Positions 489-60,370 of a stretch of 64,000 bases of DNA are shown here, piece after piece. The notes under the pieces are model-generated. The model worked only from the letters and a program-made list of their open reading frames with translations. It made no database searches and had not been told where the DNA came from. The DNA comes from an uncultured virus (IMG/VR IMGVR_UViG_3300038424_000133) (Duplodnaviria; Heunggongvirae; Uroviricota; Caudoviricetes): IMG/VR virus record IMGVR_UViG_3300038424_000133; one strand, given 5' to 3'. Position numbers and translations under genes: made by a program. Positions within the stretch are counted from its first letter, which is position 1. The number at the start of each line of letters is the position of its first letter.

Positions 489-680
489 TTAATTAAATAA
501 CAACTTAAAAATCGCTAAGTTTCCCAACTTCATTTCTCCGCCATTCCAATTATTGCCAACTTTAAACCAATGAATCAAATAATCATATTTATTATCACAT
601 TTGCATTGGTAAAAATAACTATTTCTACTATGAGGTTTAAGTTCTGCTTTGCAATAGGGGCAAAAATATTTATCGGTCAT
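489..680 (-). CDS. small Zn-finger protein (paralogue of 1104, 10749, 11311; lacks the FIFR tail)
   Basis: FCPYCK..L...YQCKC...W pattern shared with the paralogues. Confidence 0.65.
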   Translation of the reverse strand: MTDKYFCPYCKAELKPHSRNSYFYQCKCDNKYDYLIHWFKVGNNWNGGEMKLGNLAIFKLLFN

Positions 681-949
681 CTAAATATGAACGCCTGATT
701 TTTATTTGTAAATTTACGCCATAATTTGAACCAATTCTTATTTTTATCATACTTATTAATAGGAACACATAAATGTTGTGCTTCCTCATATACTTCTCCC
801 CATTTATTAAAGCACTTAGGGCAAAGTACAGCCAATTTTGTACGGCTATCTTCTTCTTCTTGTGTCTCTCCCAAATTAATTTCCCAGAACTGCCCGTTGC
901 TACCTGTTCTTAATGCATTGCATTTTGCACATCTGCTAATATTTGACAT
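677..949 (-). CDS. Cys-rich small protein, C-terminal FIFR
   Basis: RCAKC...LCPKC...NQAFIFR*; AGGTGA RBS. Confidence 0.75.
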   Translation of the reverse strand: MSNISRCAKCNALRTGSNGQFWEINLGETQEEEDSRTKLAVLCPKCFNKWGEVYEEAQHLCVPINKYDKNKNWFKLWRKFTNKNQAFIFR

Positions 950-954
950 TTATA

Positions 955-1099
955 TCACCTAAATACAAACGCTTTGGTTAATTTTACTTTTTCCATAAGC
1001 ACAATTTTTTTGAAGACCGCAATCTTTGCATTCAATCACGCACCATTCTTTTCTTTGCTTTTCGTTTGTAATTGCACTATTAAAATTTACTTCAATCAT
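955..1099 (-). pseudogene. frameshifted FVFR-tail Zn-ribbon gene
   Basis: Removing one A from the A7 run (plus strand T1005-1011) gives MIEVNF...CVIECKDCGLQKIVLMEKVKLTKAFVFR*. Confidence 0.65.
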
Positions 1100-1103
1100 T
1101 ATA

Positions 1104-1331
1104 TCACCTGAAAATAAACACCTGCTTACCTTTTGGTATTTTATCACTGTCATGCCAATCTACATTTCTCCAAATTTTCCAAATCTTCTCATTCGATAAC
1201 CAAGCCCACCTTGACGGACTTGTTATACAATCACAATTAAACATAATATATTGCTGAATAGTACGAGAATACCTTAGTTTTTTATGGCAGAAAGGGCAAA
1301 TGAATCTATCATCTTTTAAATTTACTTCCAT
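1104..1331 (-). CDS. small Zn-finger protein, C-terminal FIFR
   Basis: ICPFC...NCDC...KQVFIFR*. Confidence 0.75.
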   Translation of the reverse strand: MEVNLKDDRFICPFCHKKLRYSRTIQQYIMFNCDCITSPSRWAWLSNEKIWKIWRNVDWHDSDKIPKGKQVFIFR

Positions 1332-1337
1332 TATTAG

Positions 1338-1571
1338 TCACCTGAATATGAAGGGTTGATGCTTTGGTTTTTGTAATGGGTCGAATCTACAATAATATGG
1401 ATAAGATTTCTGTTTTGCCATTTCCATTGCTATATCATGTATTTCTTTAGTAGTTAACAGTTGGATGTTTTTATCATCGAATTTTATGTCTTTAATATGA
1501 ATAGTGGTACTTATACCTATGCATTTAGGACATTCAGGGTATTTACCAAGATGTTTTTTAGCGGAAGACAA
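1338..1571 (-). CDS. small protein (CPKC), C-terminal FIFR
   Basis: TTG start inside the upstream FVFR codons with AGGAGA RBS; ends KPKHQPFIFR*. Confidence 0.7.
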   Translation of the reverse strand: MSSAKKHLGKYPECPKCIGISTTIHIKDIKFDDKNIQLLTTKEIHDIAMEMAKQKSYPYYCRFDPLQKPKHQPFIFR

Positions 1572-1785
1572 ACGGCTCTCTCCTTATCAATTTATAATCT
1601 TCACTATTAATTTTATAAGTTTGCAATAAATGTCTGGCTTTATTTAAACAAGCATTAGACATATATGTATTTCCCTGTTTTTTCCATTTATTACTTGATT
1701 CAATTAACCTGTTAATTAGTCTTACAGCCTTTCTTTTTTTTGCATTTTCTTGCATTTGAATTTGAGTTAATTTAACGAAAGACAA
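1558..1785 (-). CDS. small helical protein (possibly DUF2786-like), C-terminal FVFR
   Basis: LINRLIES...ACLNKARHLLQTYKI...EPFVFR*. Confidence 0.7.
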   Translation of the reverse strand: MSFVKLTQIQMQENAKKRKAVRLINRLIESSNKWKKQGNTYMSNACLNKARHLLQTYKINSEDYKLIRREPFVFR

Positions 1786-1963
1786 ATTTCATCACCTTAA
1801 AGTTTCTATTTTTCTCTTTCCCTAATACTCTATCACAAAAAGGGCAGTAGATTTTAACCCAGAGTTTAACTTGCGAAAATTCTACTGCTACCTTATCGTC
1901 TGGAATCATCCTACCGCACTCAGGACATTCAACAATTTCGAAACTGATTTCATCGGAAGACAA
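1772..1963 (-). CDS. Zn-ribbon protein, C-terminal FVFR
   Basis: CPECG...YCPFC...MKFVFR*; AGGTGA RBS then TTG start. Confidence 0.75.
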   Translation of the reverse strand: MSSDEISFEIVECPECGRMIPDDKVAVEFSQVKLWVKIYCPFCDRVLGKEKNRNFKVMKFVFR

Positions 1964-2195
1964 ATTTTGTCACCTTGCTTTCTATAAATTTAATAAATGT
2001 TTTTTCGTCCCACTTATCATCTGTACAATGTGTCCTTACCCAATCATAATAAATTAAGTTACAGTTATGGCATAATGCGCCTATTAATTCCTGAGTTGTG
2101 ATTTGCTTTCCACAATAATTGCAGATATTTTTATCGTTGTTTGCTTGAATGCGGTCTAACAGACTTTTTAGCATAGGTATAATACACCATATCAC
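1950..2195 (-). CDS. Cys-rich small protein, C-terminal FVFR
   Basis: CNYC...LCHNC...TKFVFR*; the true start is probably the internal ATG (MLKSLL). Confidence 0.7.
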   Translation of the reverse strand: MIWCIIPMLKSLLDRIQANNDKNICNYCGKQITTQELIGALCHNCNLIYYDWVRTHCTDDKWDEKTFIKFIESKVTKFVFR

Positions 2196-2285
2196 ACTTA
2201 TAAACTTTTAGTTTAATCAATTACTTAAATAAACTATAAAATAAAAACATAATTTCACTATGGCAATGTGGGCAAATTAAATTAC

Positions 2286-2456
2286 TTATCGGAATACGAA
2301 CACATCCTTTACCTTAAGTTCTTTACCGCAATAATTGCAACCGTCACATTCATTGCAACAACAACCCTTCATATGATAACTACGGCAATCAAGACAACCT
2401 TCATAAAGGAAATCTCTGCCACAAATAGAGCATTTTAATGGTTTAAGTTTTGGCAT
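2286..2456 (-). CDS. 56-aa Cys-rich protein, C-terminal FVFR (below ORF-track cutoff)
   Basis: MPKLKPLKCSICGRDFLYEGCLDCRSYHMKGCCCNECDGCNYCGKELKVKDVFVFR*. Confidence 0.75.
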   Translation of the reverse strand: MPKLKPLKCSICGRDFLYEGCLDCRSYHMKGCCCNECDGCNYCGKELKVKDVFVFR

Positions 2457-2490
2457 ATTTTATCCATAGTTATATTAATGGTGTTAACAC

Positions 2491-3081
2491 TTATAAACTT
2501 TGCTGTTTTAATTCATTAGTCAATTCCAAATACTCAAAGACTAAATCGTTTATTACAGCCATATTGTAACCTGTAAAGACGTTATGATATATAAATTTAT
2601 GTAACCAAACAGGTATATAAACTACACATTCTTTATCTATATGATGCCCTTCTGAGCCTTCAAAATAATCATTTAATTCAACATAATCTAAATCACGGCG
2701 TTTAGCATAATGTTTGGCATAAATTTTTCGTAGTTTATCAGGGTTACTCTTACGCCAGTTTCTTCTATGTTCATTATATTGTTCTTTATTAGTATGTTCT
2801 TTATTATCATAATAATATTTTTTACGCTTTTCATTATATTCTTTTCTATGTGTTGCTTCATATTTTTTATCGTATTGTTTACATTTTTCTGGGTGTTTCA
2901 AACGCCAATTTCTTATTGCTTCTCTACATTTTTCAATATTTTTACTTCGCCAATTTCTATGATAGCCGATACATTTCTCATTATTCTTCTCACGCCAGTT
3001 TCTTTGATATTCTTTAAATTTAGGGGTTTTACTACGTTTTCTATCATATTCTTTGGTTTTTTCAGGGTCTTTATAGGGCAT
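2491..3081 (-). CDS. HNH-like endonuclease with basic helical N-terminal repeats
   Basis: K/R/Y/W-rich repeats, then EGHHID...LHKFIYHN. Confidence 0.6.
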   Translation of the reverse strand: MPYKDPEKTKEYDRKRSKTPKFKEYQRNWREKNNEKCIGYHRNWRSKNIEKCREAIRNWRLKHPEKCKQYDKKYEATHRKEYNEKRKKYYYDNKEHTNKEQYNEHRRNWRKSNPDKLRKIYAKHYAKRRDLDYVELNDYFEGSEGHHIDKECVVYIPVWLHKFIYHNVFTGYNMAVINDLVFEYLELTNELKQQSL

Positions 3082-3095
3082 TAATTATCATCCTT

Positions 3096-3209
3096 CTAAT
3101 AGAAGGTATGACCGCAATCACCACAACGATAACGCTGTTTCTTGCCTTTAACTGTGGGTACTTTACCAAACTTTTGTATCTTAATTGATTTACATCGTAA
3201 GCAATTCAT
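3096..3209 (-). CDS. 37-aa Zn-ribbon protein
   Basis: MNCLRCKS..IQKFG...KQRYRCGDCGHTFY*; own TATA box at about 3242-3249. Confidence 0.6.
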   Translation of the reverse strand: MNCLRCKSIKIQKFGKVPTVKGKKQRYRCGDCGHTFY

Positions 3210-3257
3210 ATTGATTACCAATAAATAAATAAACAAACTACTATTTAAATCTTTTGG

Positions 3258-4079
3258 TTAAAAAAGTTGTCTAACAGAACCTACCTTGTTACTTTTATCA
3301 ATATATAAGTATGGCTTACCATTTTGAACAAATTCTGGGAATGCAATTGAATACGCATGGTTATCTGCTTTATCATAAAATATCATTGTGCCAACTGATA
3401 AACCTTTCACTTTATCACCTATTTCATTACCGAACATTTTAGATAGCTTAGAAACATCATTTTGTCCATTTATTCTGCCCAATAGAAAATATCGCCTACG
3501 TTCTATTATTCTTGTGTCCACATCTGCCAGTCGTTGAGTCAAACCCATTATACACATACCAAAATTAGTGCATTCACAAACAGTCTTATAAATGAATCTT
3601 CCATTCTTCTGTCCTAAAGCATATCTGCCAAAGATGTTCTGAATTTCTTCGACCATGTAGAGGTTTATGAATGGAATTTCGCCATTAAGTGTTTGTTTAA
3701 TAGCCTGCTTGTGGATAAAATCTTGATAAATTATATCAGCAATTATATTTCTCGAATCAAGTGGGTCAAAAGCATCATGCATATCAACAATTAAATCCTG
3801 TGGTTCAATTGGCATTATTGTTTTTGCGTTATAACTTATGTATGGGATAGCGTCAAACTTAAACATCCAATTGAGACAGTCATCAAGAACGAGCGTCTTA
3901 TATTCGCCTGTTGCGTGTCTTGGTTGTTCAATTATACGTCTAAGAATCCATTTCATCGCATTAGTTTTACCGCATTGATTCGAACCTACAGCAATCAAGC
4001 CACCGTTCTGAATTGCTTTTGCTATAATCTCGTCTAACTTAATTATGAAATCTGGGTCTATTACTTGTGGTTGACTCAT
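3258..4079 (-). CDS. HerA/FtsK-superfamily P-loop ATPase
   Basis: GSNQCGKT Walker A, YMVEEIQ Walker B, GLTQR motif. Confidence 0.7.
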   Translation of the reverse strand: MSQPQVIDPDFIIKLDEIIAKAIQNGGLIAVGSNQCGKTNAMKWILRRIIEQPRHATGEYKTLVLDDCLNWMFKFDAIPYISYNAKTIMPIEPQDLIVDMHDAFDPLDSRNIIADIIYQDFIHKQAIKQTLNGEIPFINLYMVEEIQNIFGRYALGQKNGRFIYKTVCECTNFGMCIMGLTQRLADVDTRIIERRRYFLLGRINGQNDVSKLSKMFGNEIGDKVKGLSVGTMIFYDKADNHAYSIAFPEFVQNGKPYLYIDKSNKVGSVRQLF

Positions 4080-4084
4080 TTATA

Positions 4085-4297
4085 TCACCTAAAGATAAAT
4101 GTATTATTCTCAAGCATATATATTAATGCTTCGGCTATAATGCTATTATCAAGTGGCAGATTACCAGTTGGAACACGTTTTAAATCGTCAATTACTTTCT
4201 GCTTTGTAGTTTTCATTTTATATTTCTCCCTTTTAAATAGTCTTCTATACGCCAAACTATTTGTGTCAAAACTACAATGCCAACTCCTAAACCACAA
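4085..4297 (-). CDS. small protein, C-terminal FIFR
   Basis: Ends ENNTFIFR*; its AGG TGA doubles as the RBS of the ATPase gene. Start uncertain. Confidence 0.65.
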   Translation of the reverse strand: MWFRSWHCSFDTNSLAYRRLFKREKYKMKTTKQKVIDDLKRVPTGNLPLDNSIIAEALIYMLENNTFIFR

Positions 4298-4429
4298 AAT
4301 CCGCCAATTATAGAATTAAAAATTTCACTCATTCAACATCACCATTATTTTCTATCTTTTCATCTTCATAAATTGCAATCATCTTGCACCAATATTTCTT
4401 CTCGTTCTTAAAGAATGTTTTTATGTCTC

Positions 4430-4738
4430 TCACGGTTTATAACCTTCTTTTATTAATTTATTGTATAGTATTTTATGTTCCTCTTGACCTAATTCGTAGC
4501 ATTCTTTGCATAAGTGAACTAATTGAACATGGCAATAATTTAACCAATATTCTTTACGATTTTTATGCTCTCGTTTTTTACATTCCTTTTCTATTTGTTC
4601 CCAGCGTTCTTGTAACGCCATAGTTATATCTTCAAATTGTTTTGAAGGGGCAGTCATAGTTCCAGTTGGTTTGTCATTAAATATATAAGCTGTAGTTTTA
4701 GTAACTTTACTTCTTTTAAACAACATTTTCATTATCAC
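4430..4738 (-). CDS. hypothetical protein
   Basis: ORF in a tight operon with AGGTGA RBS. Confidence 0.55.
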   Translation of the reverse strand: MIMKMLFKRSKVTKTTAYIFNDKPTGTMTAPSKQFEDITMALQERWEQIEKECKKREHKNRKEYWLNYCHVQLVHLCKECYELGQEEHKILYNKLIKEGYKP

Positions 4739-4898
4739 CTTTTGGATAAATTGGACAGTTAGCTAAGTTGCATCTATCGTTTTTATTTAAGTTGTCACTC
4801 GGTTCGTTGCAAAAACAACGCTTATCTTCACCCTGAATATGTGAGTCACATAACCTGCTAAACTTAGTGAAACTAATCATCTTTAATTTCTTAACCAT
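4716..4898 (-). CDS. small Cys-rich protein
   Basis: LCDSH...CFC...CNLANCP. Confidence 0.5.
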   Translation of the reverse strand: MVKKLKMISFTKFSRLCDSHIQGEDKRCFCNEPSDNLNKNDRCNLANCPIYPKGDNENVV

Positions 4899-4900
4899 TT

Positions 4901-5362
4901 TTATACACCAAAGTAATATTGATATTTGTAATAGTAAATTGTTGAACCGTCAATATAGTACCAATTCCAATAGTGCGGAAGTAATCCTTCATCAAATAAT
5001 CTTCCTTGATAAAAGAAGATTGTTGAAACATGCTGACTTTGACAGAAAGTTATGAAGTCATCTATTGAACTAAAACTAACTTTCGTAAGAGAAGATGATA
5101 AACCGTTGCTTCTTGACATATCTGCTGTTATAACTGTAAAGTTTGCAGTTGTAAGTTTTTGCATTGAAGCATCATAAATTGATGGTTCTGGTGAAGATGT
5201 AACTATTGGTGAAGGTGATGGTGTTAATGTTGGTTTTATTGATGATATATTATTTTGTTGATTAGCGTACACGCCAATTAACCCAATTATAGAACTAATT
5301 ATTATAATTAACATGTATATAATTTTTTGTTTTTTATTCATCATAATCACACTTATTTTCAT
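4901..5362 (-). CDS. membrane-anchored or secreted protein with Pro/Ser/Thr linker
   Basis: Basic N-region plus hydrophobic helix, then PTLTPSPSPIVTSSPEP. Confidence 0.65.
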   Translation of the reverse strand: MKISVIMMNKKQKIIYMLIIIISSIIGLIGVYANQQNNISSIKPTLTPSPSPIVTSSPEPSIYDASMQKLTTANFTVITADMSRSNGLSSSLTKVSFSSIDDFITFCQSQHVSTIFFYQGRLFDEGLLPHYWNWYYIDGSTIYYYKYQYYFGV

Positions 5363-5603
5363 AATCTATTGCTATTTCGTAAGCAAGACGAATTCCTATG
5401 CTTTCGACACGCCACGCAATCAAGTCTTCAATTAACCCTTGTCTCTTCATTTCTTTAAAGGGTTTATCGCCTACTGTTTCCTTTAATACGTTAATGAATT
5501 CTTTAATTAAACCCCTTATTTCCTCTTGCGTAGCTTTAGGCAATTCATAATTGTCTAACTTATCTACTATTGTTTCCAGTTTAGTTTTTGGCATATTTAT
5601 CAC
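5334..5603 (-). CDS. hypothetical protein
   Basis: ORF downstream of a TATA box at about 5626-5632. Confidence 0.55.
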   Translation of the reverse strand: MINMPKTKLETIVDKLDNYELPKATQEEIRGLIKEFINVLKETVGDKPFKEMKRQGLIEDLIAWRVESIGIRLAYEIAIDYENKCDYDE

Positions 5604-5651
5604 GGTTATTAATAGTTATCGCCATTAATAAACTTATCGCCTTGTTACCAT

Positions 5652-5858
5652 CTACCTAAATATAAATGTTAATTTAAATCTGGGGCAACCTTTAGCTTGA
5701 AGGTCTTTAGATATAGGGTCGTGTCCAAAATTCTTCAAATAACAATCTTTACAATAACAATCCTTTATGACTCTTTCATATCCACATTCGTTATTACAAT
5801 AAAAAACTTTTTTACAATCAATATCAGGGCATATTTGTTTTTGTTTCATTATAGTCAC
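5652..5858 (-). CDS. Cys-rich protein, C-terminal FIFR
   Basis: ICP..CKKVFYC...CYCKDC...LTFIFR*. Confidence 0.75.
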   Translation of the reverse strand: MTIMKQKQICPDIDCKKVFYCNNECGYERVIKDCYCKDCYLKNFGHDPISKDLQAKGCPRFKLTFIFR

Positions 5859-6061
5859 CTAAATATGAATGGTTGATGTTTAGGTTTTACTTCGGGTTTA
5901 GGGTCTTCTAACTGATGAGCAAAATAATGGCAACTTTTACAAATAATCATATCTTTATGAGAAAACATATTTGTTTCACAATACATTGGTGTACCGCAAA
6001 GTTGGCACTTGGATGGTTGTTGTTTTTCTATCTTTTTATTTCTTCTTAACCAATTTAACAT
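5855..6061 (-). CDS. Zn-finger protein, C-terminal FIFR
   Basis: CQLCG...ICKSC...KPKHQPFIFR*. Confidence 0.75.
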   Translation of the reverse strand: MLNWLRRNKKIEKQQPSKCQLCGTPMYCETNMFSHKDMIICKSCHYFAHQLEDPKPEVKPKHQPFIFR

Positions 6062-6073
6062 ATTTATATCACC

Positions 6074-6382
6074 TTAAAGGCAATGTGTTAAAACAAAAAT
6101 TATAAACCAAAGAAACGCAAGCCCAGCACCGAATATGAAAAAATAAATTAACCCCATAAATGCATGTTGGCTAAATGTTGCTTGCGACTTCGATTTAGAT
6201 TGCTTATAAATCTTCTTGCAAGCATTACACAAAGTGGCATCATCATCATCACTATTGAAGGTATGACCACAATTATAACAAACTCTTGTTTTTACAGTTG
6301 TTGGTTTAGCATCAGATTTACCATTACTTAAAATAACTACTTTATCAGTTTCCAATTTGCCAGCTAAGTTAGTTTTTTGCAT
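6074..6382 (-). CDS. Zn-finger protein with C-terminal transmembrane helix
   Basis: CYNCG...LCNAC, then a hydrophobic tail. Confidence 0.6.
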   Translation of the reverse strand: MQKTNLAGKLETDKVVILSNGKSDAKPTTVKTRVCYNCGHTFNSDDDDATLCNACKKIYKQSKSKSQATFSQHAFMGLIYFFIFGAGLAFLWFIIFVLTHCL

Positions 6383-6861
6383 AATTAACTACTACATTAA
6401 TCTAATTAATAAAGTTTATTATGATTTTCCATCAATGGGTTACTCAATCGCAATCGTTAGCTACAACAATATTATTCTCGTCTTCATCATATTCGTCTTC
6501 GTTATCAACTTCACAAGTGCAACCGCTTGAAATTCCCTGCTCAAACACTTTATTTAAATCTATAATCATTAACTTATATTCGTATCGTGCCATAGCATAA
6601 TAAAACAATGCAAAAGGCAAAATTAACAGCATTGCTAAAGGCATATTTCTAAGTCTAATCTTTTTCTGAGTCAAAAGTAAATTCACCCCTTCTTATTTTA
6701 CGCTGTGTTCTACAAAGTTGATAGTGTACTTTTAATATCGAATAAGCAAAACGACTTATCTTAGCCATGACGTAACTATATATCATTATTAGACCTAATT
6801 CATACACTTCAATCATAACAGACATCGCAATCATCTACCCAAAACAATATGCAAACTTCGC

Positions 6862-7317
6862 TTATAAATCTTCTGGCTTATCTCCATTATTTCTTAATCT
6901 ATGACAATTAGAACAGACTAAAATTATATCATTAGGTATATAATCTTCTTTTTCCCACTTACGCAACACTTTAATTTTTTCGGTTGTTACTTTATTTGTA
7001 TGTTGTAACTTAGACCAAGAATCTTCGCCTAAATGATGGAAGTCATAAATACAATCGTGTTCTGTTACTAATCCACAGTCGTGACATTTTCTGCCTAACT
7101 TATCAACAGCCCACCTTTTTAATTTTTGCCCATATTCTCTATGATAATTCCTATAATATTCACGATGATTTTCTCTATATTTTATTGCTTTCTCACTTTC
7201 ATAATTCGCTATATAACGTTGATGTCTTTGTTCTTTAGTTTCAGCATATCGTTGCTGTTTCTGTTCTTTATTTTCATAAAATTCACCAACATGATGTTTT
7301 CTCATTTTTATCGCCAA
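6862..7317 (-). CDS. HNH endonuclease
   Basis: LGRKCHDCG...YDFHH...VCSNCHR. Confidence 0.8.
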   Translation of the reverse strand: MAIKMRKHHVGEFYENKEQKQQRYAETKEQRHQRYIANYESEKAIKYRENHREYYRNYHREYGQKLKRWAVDKLGRKCHDCGLVTEHDCIYDFHHLGEDSWSKLQHTNKVTTEKIKVLRKWEKEDYIPNDIILVCSNCHRLRNNGDKPEDL

Positions 7318-7588
7318 TTATCAATAATAATAATCGGCTATTTAAGTCTTTCGGTGGTCAAAGTATTTAAGTAATTGCTTAAAATTATCAAAAAAAATTT
7401 TTGGCTTTTTAAATTGATGGACTTTTTAACTACCACAAAAAATTTAAACTATTAAATTAATTCTCCATAGTTTGCATCTATGCACAACATTTCTTTCCCC
7501 TTGTTTGTGTTTAGGGGCTTCCTAACTATATAACTCATTACACACTATATATTTAATACCTAACACTTTATATATATTTATATATTTT

Positions 7589-7755
7589 CCAGCGTCATTG
7601 ACCGAAACATGAAGCTTTCATCCCCAAGTTCGGGTAACGCTGGCGACTATCACATGCGACAGTCATGCCAAAAAGTTTGGACTTACATCACTCTGTCACT
7701 TTGCTACCAATACCGAAGACACAGTTATCGGCTACTCACTCCAAATTGGTAGTAA
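7589..7755 (-). ncRNA. candidate structured non-coding RNA
   Basis: BRE/TATA (CCACAAAG-TTTATATA) at about 7777-7792; four stems, with G-U pairs only in the minus sense; no substantial ORF. Confidence 0.5.
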
Positions 7756-8056
7756 TTAATGCTATATCAAAACAAATATATAAACTTTGTGGTTTAACTA
7801 TGGATATTGTATTTCTTTGCTGAAATTCGGGCATTTCTTTGCTTCTTCTCTAAGTATCTCTAAGTATTTTTCTCTTTGGTTTTCATCCATTTATTTTTTC
7901 CTCTTTTTCAACATGTAAACACGGTAATCATCTATTAGTTTTCTGCATTCATCTACTCTATCACTAAGAATAATTAAGTTATAAGCACCGCTAATTTTTC
8001 TTTGGCATAGTCTTTCAAGTTCTTGGTAACTTATAGGTTTTTCTTCTGGCATAGAA

Positions 8057-8281
8057 TTACGACTGTGGTTGGTTAATTACACTTGCTTTCTTAATCATAG
8101 TAACGCCTTCTCCATTCTCAATATAACTTATAAAAGCATCCACTATCGCTTCGGCGTTATTAGTGTACCAATGTTGTAGTTCTACAAAATGCCTAAACCT
8201 TTGCTCAAACCACGCTTTACCCGTTTCTGGCACATATTCCTCTAAGAGTATTTTCCAAGCACGTTTTTCATCTGTATTCAT
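8057..8281 (-). CDS. hypothetical protein
   Basis: ORF in operon. Confidence 0.5.
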   Translation of the reverse strand: MNTDEKRAWKILLEEYVPETGKAWFEQRFRHFVELQHWYTNNAEAIVDAFISYIENGEGVTMIKKASVINQPQS

Positions 8282-8284
8282 TGA

Positions 8285-8479
8285 TTATCCAAACACCCAA
8301 AAAATTGTAATAAGTATAAGAATTGAAAGACCAATTATTCCCAAAAGCAAACCTGCTATGCTTGCAACAAAAATTATCCACGCAAGATTCCAGCCTGTAA
8401 CTAAACCTGTTATAAGTTCAGCCAATCCTATCCATGCCAAAACTGCTATGATTAATCTTTCTATTGCATTCATTTCCAT
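8285..8479 (-). CDS. small two-helix membrane protein
   Basis: Two hydrophobic segments; AGGTG RBS. Confidence 0.6.
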   Translation of the reverse strand: MEMNAIERLIIAVLAWIGLAELITGLVTGWNLAWIIFVASIAGLLLGIIGLSILILITIFWVFG

Positions 8480-8844
8480 TTTTTATCAACACCTAAGATA
8501 GTGTAAACAAGGATATAAATGTTGTGCTTAAACACCATTAATCACCTAAACGTGATTGTCTTTAACACCATCACGCTCTTGACATACCCATTTTCCAATA
8601 TAGGAATCCCAAGTATATCGCATTCCATCATTAGGTGGCATTTTAAACATCACTACTTTGCAATTCGGTTTCTTGCACAACTACTTCTTTATCTTTAACG
8701 ATTATGGCGTAGATTCTACTCCATGTTTCAACATACCCAATTATTTGTTCGGTCATACTTATCAACAATATAATATAACAAAGGTGCTAATAAAGGTTAT
8801 GGCTATTTAATGACTATGGTTTTATTTAATAAAAAAAACTAAAG

Positions 8845-9768
8845 TTATTTATTTATGGCTTTTAGAAAACCATTTGGGGTAATTTCCATTTCTATATATT
8901 TTCTATTAAAACTACATAATCTACAAGAGAGTATTCTTGCGAAATGTGTATTTTCCCATTGTTTCTTTTGAAGTTCGTCTTTCATTTGCCCCATAGCTTT
9001 GGCGAAGTCAATACAAATAACGCTGTCTAAGTTGTGAGCCACCCCGACACCACCGCTAATTGAAAATTTGTCAGTTTCTTCTTCGCTTCGTTGGCAGACA
9101 TATAAACCCGTAATTCCTTTTAATTGGTTAAACCGTGACAGTTGCAAAACCCTATGTTTAAGATTTTGGCGATAAGATTCAAGTAAGGTCAATGAATCAA
9201 TCACTAAAAGTTTAATGTTGTTTTTGGGGTCTTCAACTAAACTTCGATATACGCCAATAAGAGTTTCAAAATCGGAAAGTTGACCGTGAGTTATACAATC
9301 TAAAACAAAAAGATTATCTTTTATCTTTTGCCAATCTAACCCAAGACTTTTAGATTTTTCCATTAGTCTTGATTGAAGGTCAAATCTTTCGTTGTCTGAA
9401 TTGAATATATCTTCACTCGTTATAAAGACCACACCTTTACTTTCATTAGCGGTTCTGAGAAGAATTTCCTGTGCAAGCAAAGATTTCCCAACACCACTTA
9501 ATCCAACTATGCCTATTTGACCGCAAGAAGGTAAACCATTCAAAGGTTCAGATTGTTCGTTAAAATAAAGTTTATCGAGAAATGTTCCTGTTAAAAACCC
9601 CTTCAAAGTCTTTTTTACAGTTAAATCATTTGGCTTTATAACTAATGCTTGCATGGTTGTATCTATCGGTTTATCAAAGGCTTTAATATCTAAATCATGT
9701 TGTGCATTAGCTAAAACTTGCGCTAACATATCTTTAAGTTTATCGGCATTTATGGCTGTTTCGGTCAT
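8845..9768 (-). CDS. archaeal single-domain KaiC-like (RecA superfamily) ATPase
   Basis: GLSGVGKS Walker A, LLVIDSLT Walker B, GGVGVAHNLDSVI; start probably MTETAIN. Confidence 0.75.
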   Translation of the reverse strand: MTETAINADKLKDMLAQVLANAQHDLDIKAFDKPIDTTMQALVIKPNDLTVKKTLKGFLTGTFLDKLYFNEQSEPLNGLPSCGQIGIVGLSGVGKSLLAQEILLRTANESKGVVFITSEDIFNSDNERFDLQSRLMEKSKSLGLDWQKIKDNLFVLDCITHGQLSDFETLIGVYRSLVEDPKNNIKLLVIDSLTLLESYRQNLKHRVLQLSRFNQLKGITGLYVCQRSEEETDKFSISGGVGVAHNLDSVICIDFAKAMGQMKDELQKKQWENTHFARILSCRLCSFNRKYIEMEITPNGFLKAINK

Positions 9769-9888
9769 TTTAATACACCAAACTTGCTGTTTGTTTCTCC
9801 GTGAAATTTTGGCAATATTCTTCGCCTGTGTGGTCACACGCCCAATTTCCAATTTTATAGTTAGCGCATCTATCAGATTTTTTGCAGG

Positions 9889-10119
9889 TCATTTTTCTAC
9901 ATCCTCTAAAAGTTCATCTGCATCAAGCCAATGTTTACCGAAAAAATTGACGACATTGCGTTTTATTTCTAAACTACTTTTACTATTTTCTTGGCGTTTT
10001 TGTGTTAACCATTCTTTGTTATATGATTTTACTGCCTTTTCTATTCTTTTTAGAATTTCATCTGACAGATAAATTGAATTATCTGCTAAGTATTGTTTTA
10101 GTGTTTTTTGTTCTGTCAT
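9889..10119 (-). CDS. hypothetical protein
   Basis: ORF with AGGTGA RBS. Confidence 0.5.
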   Translation of the reverse strand: MTEQKTLKQYLADNSIYLSDEILKRIEKAVKSYNKEWLTQKRQENSKSSLEIKRNVVNFFGKHWLDADELLEDVEK

Positions 10120-10262
10120 TGCTTAGATTCACCTTTTTTCACGGTGTCAAAGTATTCTTTATTTTTTTGTTTTTTGCGTAAAGGGCAATTTTTGCGTATT
10201 GAAGACTTGCATTTTCGACAATTTTTAACTAACCCAACTCGATATTGACACATATTTTTCAC

Positions 10263-10691
10263 CTAATCGCAATTTGGATAGAACAAACAAACTGTCTTAC
10301 CAACCATGCCGAAGCCGTGTCCAATGAAACTCTGCCAGCGTGTAATTTTAACCCAAACTAATCCTTCTTGGTTTTCTGGCTGACCTTGTGGTGCTTTTAC
10401 TTCTTCAAACTCTAATTGTTCATACTTTTTAAGATATTTATGCAAATCAGCCCAGCCTTGACAAACGGCAGGTTCATTAAAGTCATAATTAGCACCTGAA
10501 ATTCTACCAAGAATCTTGCCTATGTCGCCATCCATTGGTAATGGTACAAATACGCCTTCAATTTGCACATGGTTGCAACATACGCCATTAGTTTGTTGTT
10601 CCCAAAACACATTAGTTTTCATTGGCAAAACAAACCCGAAATTATGGTCGTAAGTATTTAATTCAATTCTGTTGTTTTTCAAATCAATCAC
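10263..10691 (-). CDS. hypothetical protein (resembles DUF6210 from memory)
   Basis: QQTNGxxC...EGVFVPL...EGLVWV...YPNCD. Confidence 0.5.
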   Translation of the reverse strand: MIDLKNNRIELNTYDHNFGFVLPMKTNVFWEQQTNGVCCNHVQIEGVFVPLPMDGDIGKILGRISGANYDFNEPAVCQGWADLHKYLKKYEQLEFEEVKAPQGQPENQEGLVWVKITRWQSFIGHGFGMVGKTVCLFYPNCD

Positions 10692-10748
10692 TTTATATAA
10701 TTAAGTATGGAGTTCTCCTATATAAACTTTACCTCTTTTAACCATTAG

Positions 10749-11015
10749 TCACCTGAATATAAAAGTTTCCTTAATCTTCATTTCTTTATCGTTAAAATAT
10801 TTAGTTGGTTCATTACGACCTAAGTAACCCCATCTTTTGCCACCACTTCTAACTAAATATTCGCTTCCATCATGTAAATATATCCAATTGCCACAACTAT
10901 TATATGACTTGCATTTGCATCTGTAATAATCGTGAGTGTAATTAATTTTTCTTGTACATTCTGAAAGAATTAACCGTGACTTACAAATGGGGCAAACAAT
11001 AAACATCCATATCAC
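10749..11015 (-). CDS. Zn-finger protein, C-terminal FIFR
   Basis: VCPICK...YRCKC...KETFIFR*. Confidence 0.75.
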   Translation of the reverse strand: MIWMFIVCPICKSRLILSECTRKINYTHDYYRCKCKSYNSCGNWIYLHDGSEYLVRSGGKRWGYLGRNEPTKYFNDKEMKIKETFIFR

Positions 11016-11314
11016 CTGAATATAAATGTATGTTTAGTTTCTTTATCTGGAACATCTTTAAGTTTCAAGAAATAATTAAAAAAGATGTTACGCCAATTAT
11101 TCCATTTATTATATATATCTGCAAGGGTACTTATATCTACTTTTTTAGAGTAAAATTTATCCCATATTTTATCGCAGTCTTTGCAACAATAATAAGTTTT
11201 ACCTTTATGAGTAATCATAGACTGGATATAATTTCCATTTTCCAAATCAATCTTTCCATATTTATAATTTAAATCAATATGGAATTCTACACCGCACCTA
11301 CAACATTTAATCAT
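11012..11314 (-). CDS. Cys-rich protein, C-terminal FIFR
   Basis: CCRCG...CCKDC...KHTFIFR*. Confidence 0.75.
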   Translation of the reverse strand: MIKCCRCGVEFHIDLNYKYGKIDLENGNYIQSMITHKGKTYYCCKDCDKIWDKFYSKKVDISTLADIYNKWNNWRNIFFNYFLKLKDVPDKETKHTFIFR

Positions 11315-11547
11315 CTAAATATGAACACCTGCTTTGGTTGTGGTTTTTCGTTAACTTCTATCCAACCCGAATTTTCTGCCTCTAAATAAAGCCAAGATTT
11401 AGTTTTATAATTATATTGCCATGAGAATTTTCTAACTGAAAGTGATTTATAATTTTTTAAAGGATGACATTCACACCAATAACAATATTTATCATAAGAT
11501 ACTAAAGGTGTCTTACAGTAAGGGCAAATTAGTTTTATATCACTCAT
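11311..11547 (-). CDS. Zn-finger protein, C-terminal FIFR
   Basis: ICPYCK...WCEC...KQVFIFR*. Confidence 0.75.
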   Translation of the reverse strand: MSDIKLICPYCKTPLVSYDKYCYWCECHPLKNYKSLSVRKFSWQYNYKTKSWLYLEAENSGWIEVNEKPQPKQVFIFR

Positions 11548-11786
11548 CTAAAGACAAACCCCTCTCCACTATAACACCGTTTAACTCGTTGTTTATTATA
11601 AGGTTCATTTTTAGTTGTGCATTCTTTACAATAACATTTTCTCTCTGTAGTTTTTTCAATTTTAATGCCACCCCAATCATCTTCATCAAAGCATTTAAAT
11701 TTAACTATTTTTCCGCTAAAAGTCATAACGCCGTCTGCATTACATAAAAATGTTTTACCGCAACTTTTACATTTAACCCTAATCAT
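11544..11786 (-). CDS. Cys-rich protein, C-terminal FVFR
   Basis: CKSCGKTFLC...CYCKEC...EGFVFR*. Confidence 0.75.
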   Translation of the reverse strand: MIRVKCKSCGKTFLCNADGVMTFSGKIVKFKCFDEDDWGGIKIEKTTERKCYCKECTTKNEPYNKQRVKRCYSGEGFVFR

Positions 11787-12190
11787 CTGAAAATGAAAAC
11801 CTCTTTTCCTCTTATTTTTTTAAGGTCATTTAAAAGTTTGGGATTCTCAGCATTGTCAACCCAACCATGATGAAGACTATGATAGTCGCCAACTTTGTAG
11901 AAACTATTATTTTTATCTTTTAAATAAATTATTTTTATTGATATTATGCCATAACCTACACTGTAGTAACCCATTACTTCACCAATAAAATAGGATATTT
12001 CGCTATCTTTATCAATATAACTGTTATCATCGTGTCTATTACTTATAATTAAACATTTAATTATGTCGCCAACTTTATGCTTTACCGAAAATCGGCATTT
12101 ACTATCATCCATATCCCACCCTGAATTTTGATATAATTCTGGGTGTTCAACTACATATTTTGGGGCTTTAGGATTTATTAGCAATTTCAA
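11783..12190 (-). CDS. beta-rich (possibly SH3-like) protein, C-terminal FIFR
   Basis: HKVGDIIK...YKVGD...KEVFIFR*; first gene after the promoter at about 12216-12230. Confidence 0.7.
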   Translation of the reverse strand: MKLLINPKAPKYVVEHPELYQNSGWDMDDSKCRFSVKHKVGDIIKCLIISNRHDDNSYIDKDSEISYFIGEVMGYYSVGYGIISIKIIYLKDKNNSFYKVGDYHSLHHGWVDNAENPKLLNDLKKIRGKEVFIFR

Positions 12191-12464: not shown

Positions 12465-13277
12465 TTAACTTCTTTTGACTTTTCTATATGCAAGTGCGCT
12501 TAAAGTCACTACTGCTATGGCAGTAACAACTAAAACGATTGAGAGCCATAGTGGAAAACCTGCACCATTAATGCCATCTGTACCATTAGTTCCAGCTTTT
12601 CCTTGACTACCAATAGCACCTTGAGAACCAGTCGCACCAGTAGCACCACTTTGACCAGTTGCGCCAGTAGCCCCTTGACTACCAGTTGCACCCATAGCAC
12701 CTGTTAATCCTGTTGCACCATCTTTGCCGTTTGTTCCGTTAGTTCCATTTGTACCATTTACTCCTGCAATTCCTTGAAGACCTGTCTTTCCAACGTGTCC
12801 TACTGCACCTGTTAAACCTGTAGCACCCTGAATACCTTGCTCTCCTTGAATACCTTGAGCACCTTGTTCGCCTTGTGAGCCTGTAGCTCCTGTCTGTCCA
12901 GTTGCACCCGTTGCGCCTACCATACTAATAACTGTGAATGTTGCCGATGCTGAATCGCCATTAACTGTTGCTTTTATTGTGTATAAGCCAGCCGTAGTTG
13001 TAGGTATAGAAATGATTACTACAAAGTTTCCAGAACTATCAGTTTTTCCAGTTGCACTAACAAAAGGTTGCGAAACATCATTCCAATAGATAGTTATAAC
13101 TTTGTTATTATCAAAGTCACTTCCAACTATTGTAACGCAAGAAAATCCAGAGTTTGGAGATAAAGTTATTGATTGTGTGCAAGCATTAACATTACTCATC
13201 ATAACAACTGCCATCATCATTAATGCTATTAGAAGTATAGTACCATATAATTTACTTTTCATTAATTTTTTCACCAC
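12465..13277 (-). CDS. membrane-anchored collagen-like surface protein
   Basis: Signal peptide, Ig-like beta domain, long Gly-X-Y run, C-terminal TM helix with basic tail. Confidence 0.85.
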
Positions 13278-15581: not shown

Positions 15582-16328
15582 TTATACATCTTTCTTTACA
15601 CCACACTTCGGGCATAGTTCATCAACATCTCTTAATGTACCGCATTTTGGGCATTGAGACTCAACTTTAATATATCTTTCTTTCATAATTTCAGGGTCAA
15701 GCATCTCCCTAACTAATTTGAATTGTCTCTCATAAATGTGTGTATTCTTACTATGAAAAATAAGTTTGCCAGATGGTACACCAATCTCAGAAGCCATGAA
15801 TTCTACCATCATTTGTATGCCTGCTATGTTGCATGGCAATCCAGCGTAAGCATCCCAACTACGGAAGTAAGCTGTTGCACAAAGTTTATCTTCTATGATT
15901 TCGAAGTCAATCATCGTTAAGCATGGTGGGTCTTTGCATTTACCCTTAATTATGTCTTCTGGTCTTCGAATAATAACTGTACATTGGCGGTCAAACTTCT
16001 CTTGTTTAAACCTATCAATAACATTTTGTAATTGGTCAACTGGCTTACGCATTCGGTTGCCATAAGTATATTCTGCCATGTCTGGCTCTGGATACCAAAG
16101 ATATATGCCTGCATACCAATTAAGATAAGTTAAATCATTTGGGGCTTTCTCATGAAGTAATGGTCTCATTTCTGGATGCTCAATTTCTAATGTAAAGTTA
16201 ATTTTTTTGGTTAAAGTTTGCTCTGAACCATAGCCAACTTTAAATTCTATTCCTTCTTTATCTATTGCCCTTAATGTCTTCATATATCCGTCTGGGCAAT
16301 CAAAAGCATTTATTTTTATGTGTTTCAT
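15582..16328 (-). CDS. thyA: thymidylate synthase (archaeal ThyA type) with C-terminal Zn ribbon
   Basis: YTYGNR, DPPCL, FRSWD, N(IAG) and HIYE motifs. Confidence 0.85.
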   Translation of the reverse strand: MKHIKINAFDCPDGYMKTLRAIDKEGIEFKVGYGSEQTLTKKINFTLEIEHPEMRPLLHEKAPNDLTYLNWYAGIYLWYPEPDMAEYTYGNRMRKPVDQLQNVIDRFKQEKFDRQCTVIIRRPEDIIKGKCKDPPCLTMIDFEIIEDKLCATAYFRSWDAYAGLPCNIAGIQMMVEFMASEIGVPSGKLIFHSKNTHIYERQFKLVREMLDPEIMKERYIKVESQCPKCGTLRDVDELCPKCGVKKDV

Positions 16329-17456: not shown

Positions 17457-17644
17457 TCACCTAAAAATAAATGGTTGCCTACTATTAAGTTGTTTACAAC
17501 GACTAAACCTGTATTACCTGCACCCTTAAAACATTTAGCGCATAAACAATTCTTATTAATAGAAGCACAACTATTATCGCAATAAAATACTTTCTGGCAT
17601 TTAGGGCAAACTCTTTTTATTTGTATTTTTAAATTCTTGCTCAA
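17457..17644 (-). pseudogene. frameshifted FIFR-tail gene (paralogue of 5652)
   Basis: N-terminus VCPKCQKVFYC...CLCAKC; the -1 frame reads RFSRCKQLNSRQPFIFR* ending at 17457. Confidence 0.65.
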
Positions 17645-22482: not shown

Positions 22483-22794
22483 CTAATAGGTTTTAGATTC
22501 TTGTCTTGCGTAGTTCTCTTTAAGTTTATCACAGTATGCATTGTATAGTTCATATACAGTAATTTTATCAGCACCCATATATAGTAAAAAGAAATGCATT
22601 ATATCAACTAATTCTTCAACTCGATTTTTATGTGTACCTCTCTTTTTACTCCACCATTTACCTTTACTTCCTATCCAAAGTTCTCCTGCTTCGACCATTA
22701 ATGCGGCGGCTATTCTATGTCTTTGTGGATGATAATTATATTTATTTTGAAATTCATTTTGTAATTTTAGCATTTCCTCTAATTTATCAGTCAT
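22483..22794 (-). CDS. dimeric all-alpha dUTPase / MazG-like nucleotide pyrophosphatase
   Basis: EAGELW...KWW...EELVDIMHF. Confidence 0.75.
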   Translation of the reverse strand: MTDKLEEMLKLQNEFQNKYNYHPQRHRIAAALMVEAGELWIGSKGKWWSKKRGTHKNRVEELVDIMHFFLLYMGADKITVYELYNAYCDKLKENYARQESKTY

Positions 22795-57976: not shown

Positions 57977-58435
57977 TTATTGAGAATAAGGGTCAGGAAG
58001 CGTTATTTTTCGTGGAAGATTATATAATTCTGGTGGAAGTTTACCTTCTTGAATCCAAAGAATGGTTTGATAAGCACAAGCAATATTCCACAGAGATGCA
58101 ACCAAGTGATTTTCGTCATCACGACCATCAACAACTTGTGCTAAATGACGCATAGCAGAATCAAGAAATGAACTAACTGGTATTCCTTTTTCCCAATTTC
58201 TGTCCCCATATTTCTTGCAACCCTTTTCATAATGAATTGCTAAAGCCCGTATAGTTTGCCAAGGTATAAGGTCAAATCTTCCTTTACCCTGACTCATATC
58301 ACGAACTGCTCCTGTACCAAAATCTCGGCGTTGACCAGAATCTTTAATTTCATAATCAGAAGGATGGTCTTTAGTGTCTTGTTCTACTATCTTCTGTATA
58401 ACATTATTTTTCTTTTGTTTTTTGTTCAAATTCAT
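57977..58435 (-). CDS. dATP/dGTP diphosphohydrolase (DUF5664-like)
   Basis: GAVRD..GKGRFDLIP, KYGDRNWEKG, DSAMRH, DENHL. Confidence 0.8.
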   Translation of the reverse strand: MNLNKKQKKNNVIQKIVEQDTKDHPSDYEIKDSGQRRDFGTGAVRDMSQGKGRFDLIPWQTIRALAIHYEKGCKKYGDRNWEKGIPVSSFLDSAMRHLAQVVDGRDDENHLVASLWNIACAYQTILWIQEGKLPPELYNLPRKITLPDPYSQ

Positions 58436-59731: not shown

Positions 59732-60370
59732 TTAACCAATACCTTCATTATATCTATCAAGACATTCTTGACATAAATCATCTGTGGTGACTAATTCTTT
59801 ATCATGTCCACAATTTGCACATTTACCTATTCTTTTAGGTTTTGGGGCATTCTTAATTTGGTCCTCTATCCATTCATCCTCTAATTTAACCCAATCTACT
59901 ACTTCTTCATGAAATAGTATAATTCTCTTCTTTGATTCTCCAAGACCACTTGGAATAACAATTTTAGATTTATAGTAATAGACATCTTTGATTCCCGCCT
60001 GTATAATAAAGCGTCTGCAAAGATGGCATGGGCGTTCATCATTTTTATCATTAACTTCGCTAAGATACATCGTAGCTCCAACTGTAGATATTCCAACTCT
60101 TGCCGCATTCATAATACAATTTTGTTCTCCATGCACACTTGAACAATGCTCATATGATTTACAATGTTCTTCGTTATATAAGTCTTTTAAACATGGGGTA
60201 TCTACACCACAATTTTTTGCCCCACGAACAGTTCCAGTATAGCCAGTTGCTATAATAGCATCATCTTTAACTAATATAGCACCAAATTTTCGTCTGCTAC
60301 ACGGACTTCTTTCAGCAACAACTTTAGCCATTTTAAAATACCAATCTATTTTATTCGGTCTTTGGCTCAT
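59732..60370 (-). CDS. dCMP deaminase
   Basis: RSPCSRR, VHGEQN, PCHLC. Confidence 0.9.
   Translation of the reverse strand: MSQRPNKIDWYFKMAKVVAERSPCSRRKFGAILVKDDAIIATGYTGTVRGAKNCGVDTPCLKDLYNEEHCKSYEHCSSVHGEQNCIMNAARVGISTVGATMYLSEVNDKNDERPCHLCRRFIIQAGIKDVYYYKSKIVIPSGLGESKKRIILFHEEVVDWVKLEDEWIEDQIKNAPKPKRIGKCANCGHDKELVTTDDLCQECLDRYNEGIG

Follow-up and report, generated by a model that had tools for sequence, protein, structure and literature searches.

We analyzed a stretch of 64,000 nucleotides (nt) from an uncultured virus (IMG/VR record IMGVR_UViG_3300038424_000133), referred to in the following as the window, and found that many of its small proteins end in the same four residues, F[IV]FR. 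Judging from a comparison with related loci, F-[IV]-F-R-COOH is the form that one virus clade gives to a seven-residue tag, K-x-x-hydrophobic-x-hydrophobic-x-COOH. Our preferred explanation, to which we assign a probability of roughly 0.55, is that this tail is a docking or address peptide read by a single partner that diverged together with the viruses and is probably viral itself.

A six-frame search of the window located F[IV]FR with an immediate stop codon 17 times on the minus strand and not once on the plus strand. Without a stop directly after it the same motif occurs only twice across all six frames. Fifteen of the 147 minus-strand open reading frames (ORFs) of at least 40 amino acids (aa) end in F[IV]FR, where composition predicts 0.0014, and a control in which columns were shuffled gave a maximum of 2 such ends in 2000 shuffles. 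These 15 intact carriers measure 56-135 aa, lie on the minus strand within positions 677-12190, and in many cases contain two CxxC pairs. The original prediction for this DNA spoke of an "FIFR tag"; the shared hydrophobic-Phe-Arg end is real, but it reads FIFR in nine of the 15 carriers and FVFR in the other six. An all-versus-all BLASTP comparison of the window's 16 carriers, run with the tails included and composition correction switched off, returned only seven pairs below 1e-3, so the carrier bodies are mostly unrelated.

Two tag stretches are out of frame, each at the 3' end of a zinc-ribbon ORF. The first, at 958-969 (AFVFR, stop at 955-957), lies in the +1 frame relative to ORF 959-1153, behind a run of seven A at about 1003-1009, and from this arrangement we take the ORF to be a frameshifted or slippage-dependent member of the tagged set. 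The second, at 17460-17471, falls outside the range of 677-12190 covered by the original prediction. The two copies could reflect an assembly error, a recent frameshift, or slippage that yields tagged and untagged forms of the same protein. Homologues of the 135-aa carrier (11783-12190) were found only as clusters at least 90% identical and as one form with an internal deletion; all of them keep the tail, and they are too close to inform on its evolution. In the public gene call for a protein of this cluster (P0011) the TGA after the tail is read as Trp, which adds 26 residues, probably because the caller applied another code to a short contig. The TAA and TAG stops that follow other tails suggest that TGA, too, is a stop in this virus.

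The relatives were reached through the P-loop ATPase encoded at 3258-4079. This protein has 13 homologues at 35-100% identity, and a profile of these led to 2 viral and 30 metagenomic loci and to one contig (L033) of an archaeal metagenome-assembled genome (MAG; G001). F[IV]FR tails recur in loci that group with the window by their ATPase (15 in L001, four in L008, three in L005 and four in L013; ATPase 41-78% identical), which together we call clade A. The tails of a second clade (L015 and L017) read K-V-K-V-x-L-[IV], with 32 distinct examples, and those of a third (L024, L025, L026 and L028) read K-E-K-V-x-F-T, with 92 distinct examples, 35 of them in L025 alone. Short loci supplied the further variants E-K-V-[MVI]-F-[ST] and E-[SK]-I-I-F-I, and in L031 and L032, where the ATPase is 28% identical, no tails were seen. 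Drawn from 14 sources, the count of distinct tagged proteins amounts to 168, with 44 in clade A, 32 in the second clade and 92 in the third.

Alignment of these tails brings out what is kept and what is not. Lysine occupies position -7 in 24/44, 24/32 and 55/92 tails of the three clades, the hydrophobic residue at -4 is F, V and V, and the one at -2 is F, L and F, the latter without exception (Phe in 44/44, Leu in 32/32 and Phe in 92/92). Position -3 is shared equally by Ile and Val in clade A (22 each of 44) and is varied in the third clade, where the residues listed for the 92 tails include Gln (31), Glu (15), Ser (10), Leu (8), Lys (7) and Asn (6). The family-wide core is Lys(-7), hydrophobic residues at -4 and -2, and a free carboxylate.

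Throughout the family the tag sits at the extreme C-terminus behind a Lys-rich stretch, on proteins of 42-163 aa that are mostly zinc ribbons. Of 54 tagged proteins of at least 85 aa that were compared with Pfam, 52 had no match and the other two had matches below the cut-off only; no AAA or other ring domain was found in the carriers. Each locus examined encodes about 11 to 35 small tagged proteins in tight arrays, in viruses of roughly 90-150 kb. Two complete relatives with terminal repeats differ in this respect. In G002 (93.7 kb) the tag is encoded 16 times, and 15 of these copies fall between 69.7 and 83.0 kb; in G003 (91.4 kb) no C-terminal peptide is enriched. A scan of IMG/VR for the coding pattern of E-K-V-x-F-T-stop hit 12 contigs with one match each, which we read as probable background. 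MAG G001 contains a tail-coding pattern once, on the viral-like contig L033, against a control count of 1 per strand. In open-access papers and bioRxiv we found no relevant description of shared tails on proteins of archaeal viruses or phages.

Codon usage in the tails shows at which level they are maintained. In a non-redundant set of 42 F[IV]FR tails, taken from the window and from seven loci related to it, the first two bases of each codon do not vary and the third is free (0.2-1.1 bits). Their Arg codons comprise AGG, AGA, CGA, CGT, CGC and CGG, all three stop codons occur, and the downstream sequence is heterogeneous. Leu(-2) of the second clade is encoded by TTA, TTG, CTT, CTA and CTG, that is, by both codon families, and the third clade uses four codons for Val and two for Phe. 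Because synonymous codons vary freely, selection acts on the amino acids of the tail. Readings of the repeat as a nucleotide-level junction, a recombination cassette or a promoter were rejected, since identity exists at the codon level only.

The tags also change in concert with virus lineage. Among 94 cross-clade orthologue pairs identified by BLASTP, both members carry a tail in 10 and neither does in 84; there was no mixed pair. Seven cross-clade orthologue groups could be aligned with their clade-specific tails at the identical terminal position. For example, EGFVFR of ORF 11544-11786 aligns with EKVKFT of L024, EMVKFT of L025 and ETVNFT of L026, and EVFIFR of ORF 11783-12190 aligns with EKVSFD of L023 and ETVDFT of L028. 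In one carrier family 11 of 11 database homologues bear the tail of their own clade. Possession of the tag is a stable property of a protein family, and the sequence of the tag switches with the virus clade. In a tree of the ATPase the F[IV]FR loci form one clade (100/100) and the K-V-K-V-x-L-[IV] loci another (99/100), with V-x-F-[TSD] tails spread over several branches. By parsimony on the midpoint root the V-x-F-[TSD] form is apparently ancestral, and K-E-K-V-x-F-T appears to be the ancestral form of the full tag.

A docking peptide with these properties would probably bind as an extended strand, with the side chains at -4 and -2 on one face and the carboxylate as an anchor. Through it, a variety of small modules would attach to a single partner that co-diverged with the viruses and is most likely virus-encoded, and the tagged proteins would be clients or target-specific adaptors of that machine. 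The best candidate readers are a MoxR-type (CbbQ/CobS-like) AAA+ ATPase with its VWA partner and a KaiC-like ATPase, because they are encoded in or beside the arrays and are absent from the complete tail-less relative. An ATPase resembling B204 (the marker at 3258-4079) and a viral LonB would be weaker candidates.

The MoxR protein, of which the window holds only the beginning (2-415), measures about 295 aa in the relatives (AAA_5 and CbbQ_C), and is followed by a protein of 216-217 aa and then by the VWA protein. The latter (L001:15938-17608, L025:18499-20226, L033:8127-9803) has about 560 aa and a C-terminal VWA domain with an intact metal-ion-dependent adhesion site (MIDAS; D-x-S-x-S, here DFSGS). 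Its N-terminal 380 aa belong to no Pfam family and include an invariant H-E-x-x-H (residues 79-83 in the L001 protein). This region may be a metallopeptidase-like domain, although a Pfam search of it at E values up to 10 returned noise only and did not confirm such an assignment. Look-alikes in the Atlas, which we treat as a lead only, are CobT_C/NorD-labelled proteins of viruses, Nitrososphaerota and Bathyarchaeota. The MoxR-VWA module stands beside tails in L001/G002, L008, L015, L023 and L033, and L025 contributes a VWA homologue alone; L024 and L028, which are tailed as well, break off before a module is reached.

The KaiC-like ATPase (8845-9852) is conserved in all three tail clades. A representative search with this ATPase gave 64 homologues, some with longer N-terminal fusions, and no clue to the reader. 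The two complete relatives separate the candidates further. G002 has MoxR and VWA proteins along with its tags. G003 has no MoxR above the cut-off, no VWA protein, no 217-aa protein and no KaiC-like homologue, and it keeps the B204-like ATPase (28-29% identical) and LonB. In this comparison of two genomes, the absence of MoxR-VWA and the KaiC-like ATPase from the tail-less virus, which retains the B204-like ATPase, favors the former two over the latter. LAGLIDADG inteins interrupt the MoxR ATPase, the VWA protein, LonB and DNA ligase in these viruses (L008:3846-5762, L008:6789-9467, L053:11060-16165 of G002, L033:1205-2959, L023:15727-18495).

A more specific version, in which the tag and MoxR-VWA (possibly with the KaiC-like ATPase) form a viral addressing system and the zinc-ribbon modules act as swappable adaptors that deliver host targets such as defence proteins for remodelling or destruction, is speculative and has, in our estimate, a small chance of being correct.

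Several observations weigh against a docking peptide with a viral reader. Every gene passed on vertically has the same phylogeny as the tag type, and co-divergence therefore does not point to any one gene as the reader. Look-alikes of MoxR-VWA (CobS/CobT-like) occur in many other viruses, so this module is not specific to tails, and the presence/absence argument sets a single complete tail-less genome against a single complete tailed one and some partial loci. Because the B204-like ATPase was the only marker by which relatives were found, tailed viruses without it are not visible to this survey. An AlphaFold2 (AF2) model of the 135-aa carrier, computed from six sequences, has a mean predicted local distance difference test score (pLDDT) of 50.8 and is too poor to tell if the tail is free. 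Finally, in the second and third clades the AAGGTGA within the tag is a Shine-Dalgarno sequence and the third base of the last codon makes the next start, so part of the tag conservation there is at the nucleotide level.

Among the other explanations, the tail may be a C-terminal degron for timed removal of early proteins by viral LonB, host Lon or PAN/Cdc48 with the 20S proteasome. Lon and ClpXP are known to use C-terminal degrons, for example those of SulA and ssrA. The tagged genes form a single block of small genes near a genome end, and one shared signal would give dozens of proteins a common lifetime. G002 also encodes a LonB-type protease with an intein (G002:C1:11060-16165; Lon_C 4.5e-24, LonB lid 1.4e-6). 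However, this LonB is 56% identical over 409 aa to that of the tail-less G003 (G003:C1:77604-79781), so LonB does not need tails, and no Lon homologue was seen within the 64-kb window. Nor does a degron explain why the tag was re-invented in step in each clade, unless the reader changed too. We therefore consider this explanation unlikely, if still worth keeping in mind. The LonB of G003 has hydrophobic stretches like those of membrane-bound archaeal LonB.

We consider it rather unlikely that the B204-like ATPase, a member of the FtsK/HerA superfamily, and an adjoining small membrane protein read the tail as a signal for export or packaging. The ATPase has a profile match to HerA in the PDB at 6e-6, an AF2 model at pLDDT 85, and the packaging NTPase B204 of Sulfolobus turreted icosahedral virus 2 (STIV2) as the best Foldseek match (E 1e-11, TM 0.77 by target). 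Its gene sits mid-array in every array examined, and just upstream of it most loci encode a small membrane-anchored protein that has a hydrophobic helix at its C-terminus. The small proteins whose genes lie beside that of the ATPase would be the substrates. This association is partly built in, as the loci were found through the ATPase. Moreover, G003 has the ATPase without tails, no other secretion component was seen, and the ATPase's own tail, V-[KR]-x-L-[FW], stays constant across tag types. In the window's ATPase and its homologues this C-terminus is a conserved hydrophobic G-[YS]-V-[KR]-x-[LIV]-[FWLY] or E-R-V-F-L that is disordered in the model. We also observed that a tailed virus (portal, neck; terminase in G002) carries here an ATPase with its best fold match among the B204/A32-type packaging NTPases of membrane-containing icosahedral viruses (window 3258-4079 with 4213-4332; also L015:9623-10825, L025:9701-10825 and others).

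The tails could also pair with one another, so that the carriers co-assemble without any reader. They are short and alternate beta-branched or aromatic residues (F-I-F, V-K-V-I-L-I), and the poor AF2 model of the 135-aa carrier draws residues 131-134 as a strand. Lys(-7) and the strict confinement of the tag to the terminus suggest that it is the carboxylate end that is recognised, and strand pairing alone needs no concerted switches of sequence, which makes self-association improbable.

According to the original prediction, the tail resembles the hydrophobic-Tyr-any residue (HbYX) motif, and its carriers would dock in the alpha-alpha pockets of the host 20S proteasome as adaptors, as competitors of PAN/Cdc48, or as proteasome-directed substrates. 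The PAN of M. jannaschii, for comparison, ends in L-Y-R. The likeness to I/V-F-R is real in clade A, where the last three residues are hydrophobic-Phe-Arg in 44/44 tails and the carboxylate is free (a stop follows directly in the 15 window carriers and in all 44), and a constant tail on a variable body fits an adaptor. The same prediction held that Phe in place of Tyr weakens the case. Tyr is indeed absent from all 44 tails; but Phe(-2) alone does not kill the idea, because the human 20S, according to PMC8907193, tolerates Phe at the penultimate position or even prefers it, and is still activated by monovalent maltose-binding protein (MBP) fusions at 10-40 uM.

For the archaeal T20S, PMC10349882 describes bonds from the Tyr hydroxyl to G19 and an ordered water; there and in PMC12352868, the hydrophobic group fills a pocket of V24, L21 and A154 and the carboxylate pairs with K66. 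Tyr(-2) was not seen in any of the three clades. The conserved positions are -7, -4 and -2; polar residues prevail at -3 in the 92 V-x-F-T tails, and 32/32 tails of the second clade have Leu at -2. Orthologues keep a tail throughout although the pattern at -3/-2 is not kept, so a function common to orthologous tails, if there is one, is not HbYX docking. In addition, the tag shifts with virus lineage, and the pocket contacts are described in PMC12352868 as shared with the human 20S, so that a co-diverging reader fits better than does the pocket of the 20S. Unlike ring activators, the carriers are ORFans with a single tail and without a ring-forming or multivalent architecture, and the window yielded no gene for a proteasome, PAN or Cdc48. 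With the likeness limited to one clade, the alpha ring of the host 20S is an unlikely reader, and HbYX-like docking of the tails as a whole is very improbable.

What holds of the adaptor and degron proposals made at that time is a selected C-terminal peptide on unrelated proteins, and the neighbouring viral ATPases, then mentioned as a fallback, are a better lead than the 20S. More generally, a motif likeness seen in one genome (I-F-R versus L-Y-R) can dissolve on comparison with relatives. MAG G001 contains proteasome alpha and beta genes and a Cdc48-like frame that ends ELKYVG; its link to a host is unproven and it was not used as evidence.

It is likewise very doubtful that the tail is a by-product of translational coupling, with Shine-Dalgarno, spacer and overlapping-start signals encoding a peptide without function. 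Many window junctions read AGGTGA(N5-8)ATG, so that the Arg codon and stop double as a Shine-Dalgarno sequence with the ATG 5-8 nt on, and further junctions overlap as AGATGA or use a TTG start that lies within TTTGTC. The other clades favor AAGGTGA (GTG in 25/32) and a last base A or T that gives ATGA or TTGA, and 24/32 tails of the second and 73/92 of the third clade overlap the next start. However, a 4-nt overlap with the following gene is missing from 26/34, 8/32 and 19/92 tails of the three clades, overlapping junctions that lack a tail amount to 25, 1 and 24, and for nine of the 34 tails of clade A no ORF of 40 aa or more starts nearby (all these counts use an ORF list that includes spurious frames). 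The Phe- and Thr-coding spacer positions are conserved in their first two bases only, and AGR interchanges with CGN for Arg and TTR with CTN for Leu. For the window's clade, codon freedom and junction counts largely refute this explanation. A PCNA-interacting peptide (PIP-box) was rejected since the Q-x-x-[LIM]-x-x-[FY]-[FY] spacing is absent, with Gln(-6) in 8/44 tails and hydrophobic residues at -4/-2 only; a search of the complete relative G002 gave no PCNA_N match.

Table 1. Tag-bearing and associated ORFs of the window
Feature	Position	Strand	Remarks
MoxR-type AAA+ (AAA_5), N-terminal 138 aa	2-415	minus	Cut by window end; candidate reader module
Tagged ORF, 90 aa	677-949	minus	Two CxxC pairs; ends QAFIFR; stop overlaps next start (AGATGA)
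Zinc-ribbon ORF, 64 aa	959-1153 (feature 955-1153)	minus	Out-of-frame tag stretch at 3' end
Tagged ORF, 75 aa	1104-1331	minus	Ends QVFIFR
Tagged ORF, 77 aa	1338-1571	minus	Ends QPFIFR; TTG start within tag codons of upstream gene
Tagged ORF, 75 aa	1558-1785	minus	One Cys, no CxxC pair; ends EPFVFR; Arg CGC, stop TAA
Tagged ORF, 63 aa	1772-1963	minus	Ends MKFVFR; Arg CGT, stop TAA
Tagged ORF, 81 aa	1950-2195	minus	Ends TKFVFR; Arg CGA
Tagged ORF, 56 aa	2286-2456	minus	Cys-rich; ends DVFVFR; Arg CGA, stop TAA; about 90 nt to next gene
P-loop ATPase, FtsK/HerA superfamily, 273 aa	3258-4079	minus	Inside tagged array; marker for relatives
Tagged ORF, at most 70 aa	4085-4297	minus	Ends NTFIFR; directly upstream of B204-like ATPase
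ORF with one hydrophobic helix, 39 aa	4213-4332	minus	Upstream of ATPase
Tagged ORF, 68 aa	5652-5858	minus	Ends LTFIFR, stop TAG; L001 orthologue tailed too
Tagged ORF, 68 aa	5855-6061	minus	Ends QPFIFR
KaiC/RecA-like ATPase	8845-9852	minus	In array; candidate reader
Tagged ORF, 88 aa	10749-11015	minus	Ends ETFIFR
Tagged ORF, 100 aa	11012-11314	minus	Ends HTFIFR
Tagged ORF, 78 aa	11311-11547	minus	Ends QVFIFR
Tagged ORF, 80 aa	11544-11786	minus	Ends EGFVFR; orthologues in third clade end V-x-F-T
Tagged ORF, 135 aa	11783-12190	minus	Two Cys, no CxxC pair; ends EVFIFR; L023 orthologue VSFD, L028 VDFT
Zinc-ribbon ORF, 71 aa	17453-17668	minus	Tag stretch 17460-17471 (QPFIFR-stop) in another frame at 3' end

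The minus strand carries all long ORFs of the window, which has a G+C content of about 32%. Matches to Pfam and PHROGs include MCM (2.8e-74), RadA/Rad51 (1.1e-35), the KaiC-like ATPase (3.5e-20) and an archaeo-eukaryotic primase, and these genes bear out the earlier statement that the virus has clearly archaeal machinery. Tailed-virus genes are represented by a portal (PHROG, 7e-8) and a neck or tail-completion protein (9e-11), and genes of nucleotide metabolism and a block of glycosyltransferases are also present. The window is part of a large, poorly charted tailed virus of an archaeon. Its MCM is only 27-30% identical to the MCMs of assorted archaeal viruses, single-protein searches of IMG/VR found no close relatives, and a search of GTDB genomes with the 135-aa carrier found none either.

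Other genes of the window merit mention. A nucleotide-pool cluster (57977-58435, 59732-60837, 15582-16328 and 22483-22794) encodes a dATP/dGTP diphosphohydrolase N-domain, a dCMP deaminase, a nucleoside 2-deoxyribosyltransferase-like protein, a fusion of a thymidylate-synthase-like protein with a zinc ribbon, and a dUTPase-like protein. The dATP/dGTP diphosphohydrolase family has been linked to 2-aminoadenine genomes, and these genes hint at modified DNA; no PurZ-like gene was among the Pfam hits of the window. Directly upstream of the tagged block, the product of ORF 12465-13277 has a signal or anchor helix at either end and contains a long G-x-y repeat of the collagen type (Collagen, 2.8e-19). 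Inside the tagged array, the products of 2491-3081 and 6862-7317 are tail-less and consist of repeated Lys/Arg/Asn-rich units (N-W-R-x-K-N-x-E-K-C-like); that of 6862-7317 has PHROGs matches to HNH endonucleases.

Among the small early genes of archaeal viruses most are ORFans, which offer no handle for study, and a shared and selected tail that differs between lineages supplies one. If the tail is a docking peptide, 168 distinct proteins must meet a common partner, and a single pull-down with the peptide could reveal this hub. A viral AAA+ machine in this role would represent a new way for archaeal viruses to organise the takeover of the host, and a proteasome would represent the first viral hijack of archaeal proteolysis. 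An adaptor system would be the archaeal-virus counterpart of the F-box/BTB adaptor families of eukaryotic viruses. With one tag rewritten in concert over dozens of genes, the case is also a clean instance, provided by nature, of co-evolution between a signal and its receptor.

Comparison with known systems places the viral tag among several C-terminal signals. With the HbYX tails of PAN, archaeal Cdc48, Blm10/PA200 and Rpt it shares the extreme C-terminal position, the free carboxylate and, in clade A, the order hydrophobic-aromatic-any. However, HbYX activators are ring ATPases with Tyr, whereas the viral tags have Phe in 44/44 cases, a core at -7/-4/-2 and clade-dependent versions, and sit on small single-tail ORFans. 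Comparable in principle are the XB tether of SspB, which binds the N-domain of ClpX, and the C-terminal degrons of ssrA and SulA, where a few C-terminal residues behind a flexible stretch link unrelated proteins to one AAA+ machine. In these cases the readers are bacterial ClpX or Lon, and the viral tag differs by its presence on dozens of proteins in lineage-specific versions. Type VII secretion substrates carry C-terminal signals read by the FtsK-like EccC/EssC, and type IV signals are read by coupling proteins; these systems resemble the viral arrays in that small proteins with a short C-terminal signal are encoded beside an ATPase of the FtsK/HerA family. The viral ATPase, in contrast, is a B204/A32-like protein of minimal size (273 aa) and is present in a tail-less relative as well, and no secretion apparatus was found.

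The viral module of an AAA_5 + CbbQ_C ATPase and a VWA protein with an intact MIDAS resembles the MoxR-VWA pairs CbbQ-CbbO, NorQ-NorD and CobS-CobT, and the viral VWA protein departs from them by its family-less N-terminal 380 aa with the invariant H-E-x-x-H. We know of no MoxR-VWA system that has been described as reading a shared C-terminal tag. Poxvirus ankyrin/PRANC and BTB-Kelch proteins connect a variable target-binding body through a constant C-terminal element to a degradation machine, and thus share with the tagged proteins the design of a variable body and a constant C-terminal connector in large viral families. The poxvirus element is a folded F-box-like domain that binds a host ubiquitin ligase, whereas the tag of these archaeal viruses is a peptide of four to seven residues.

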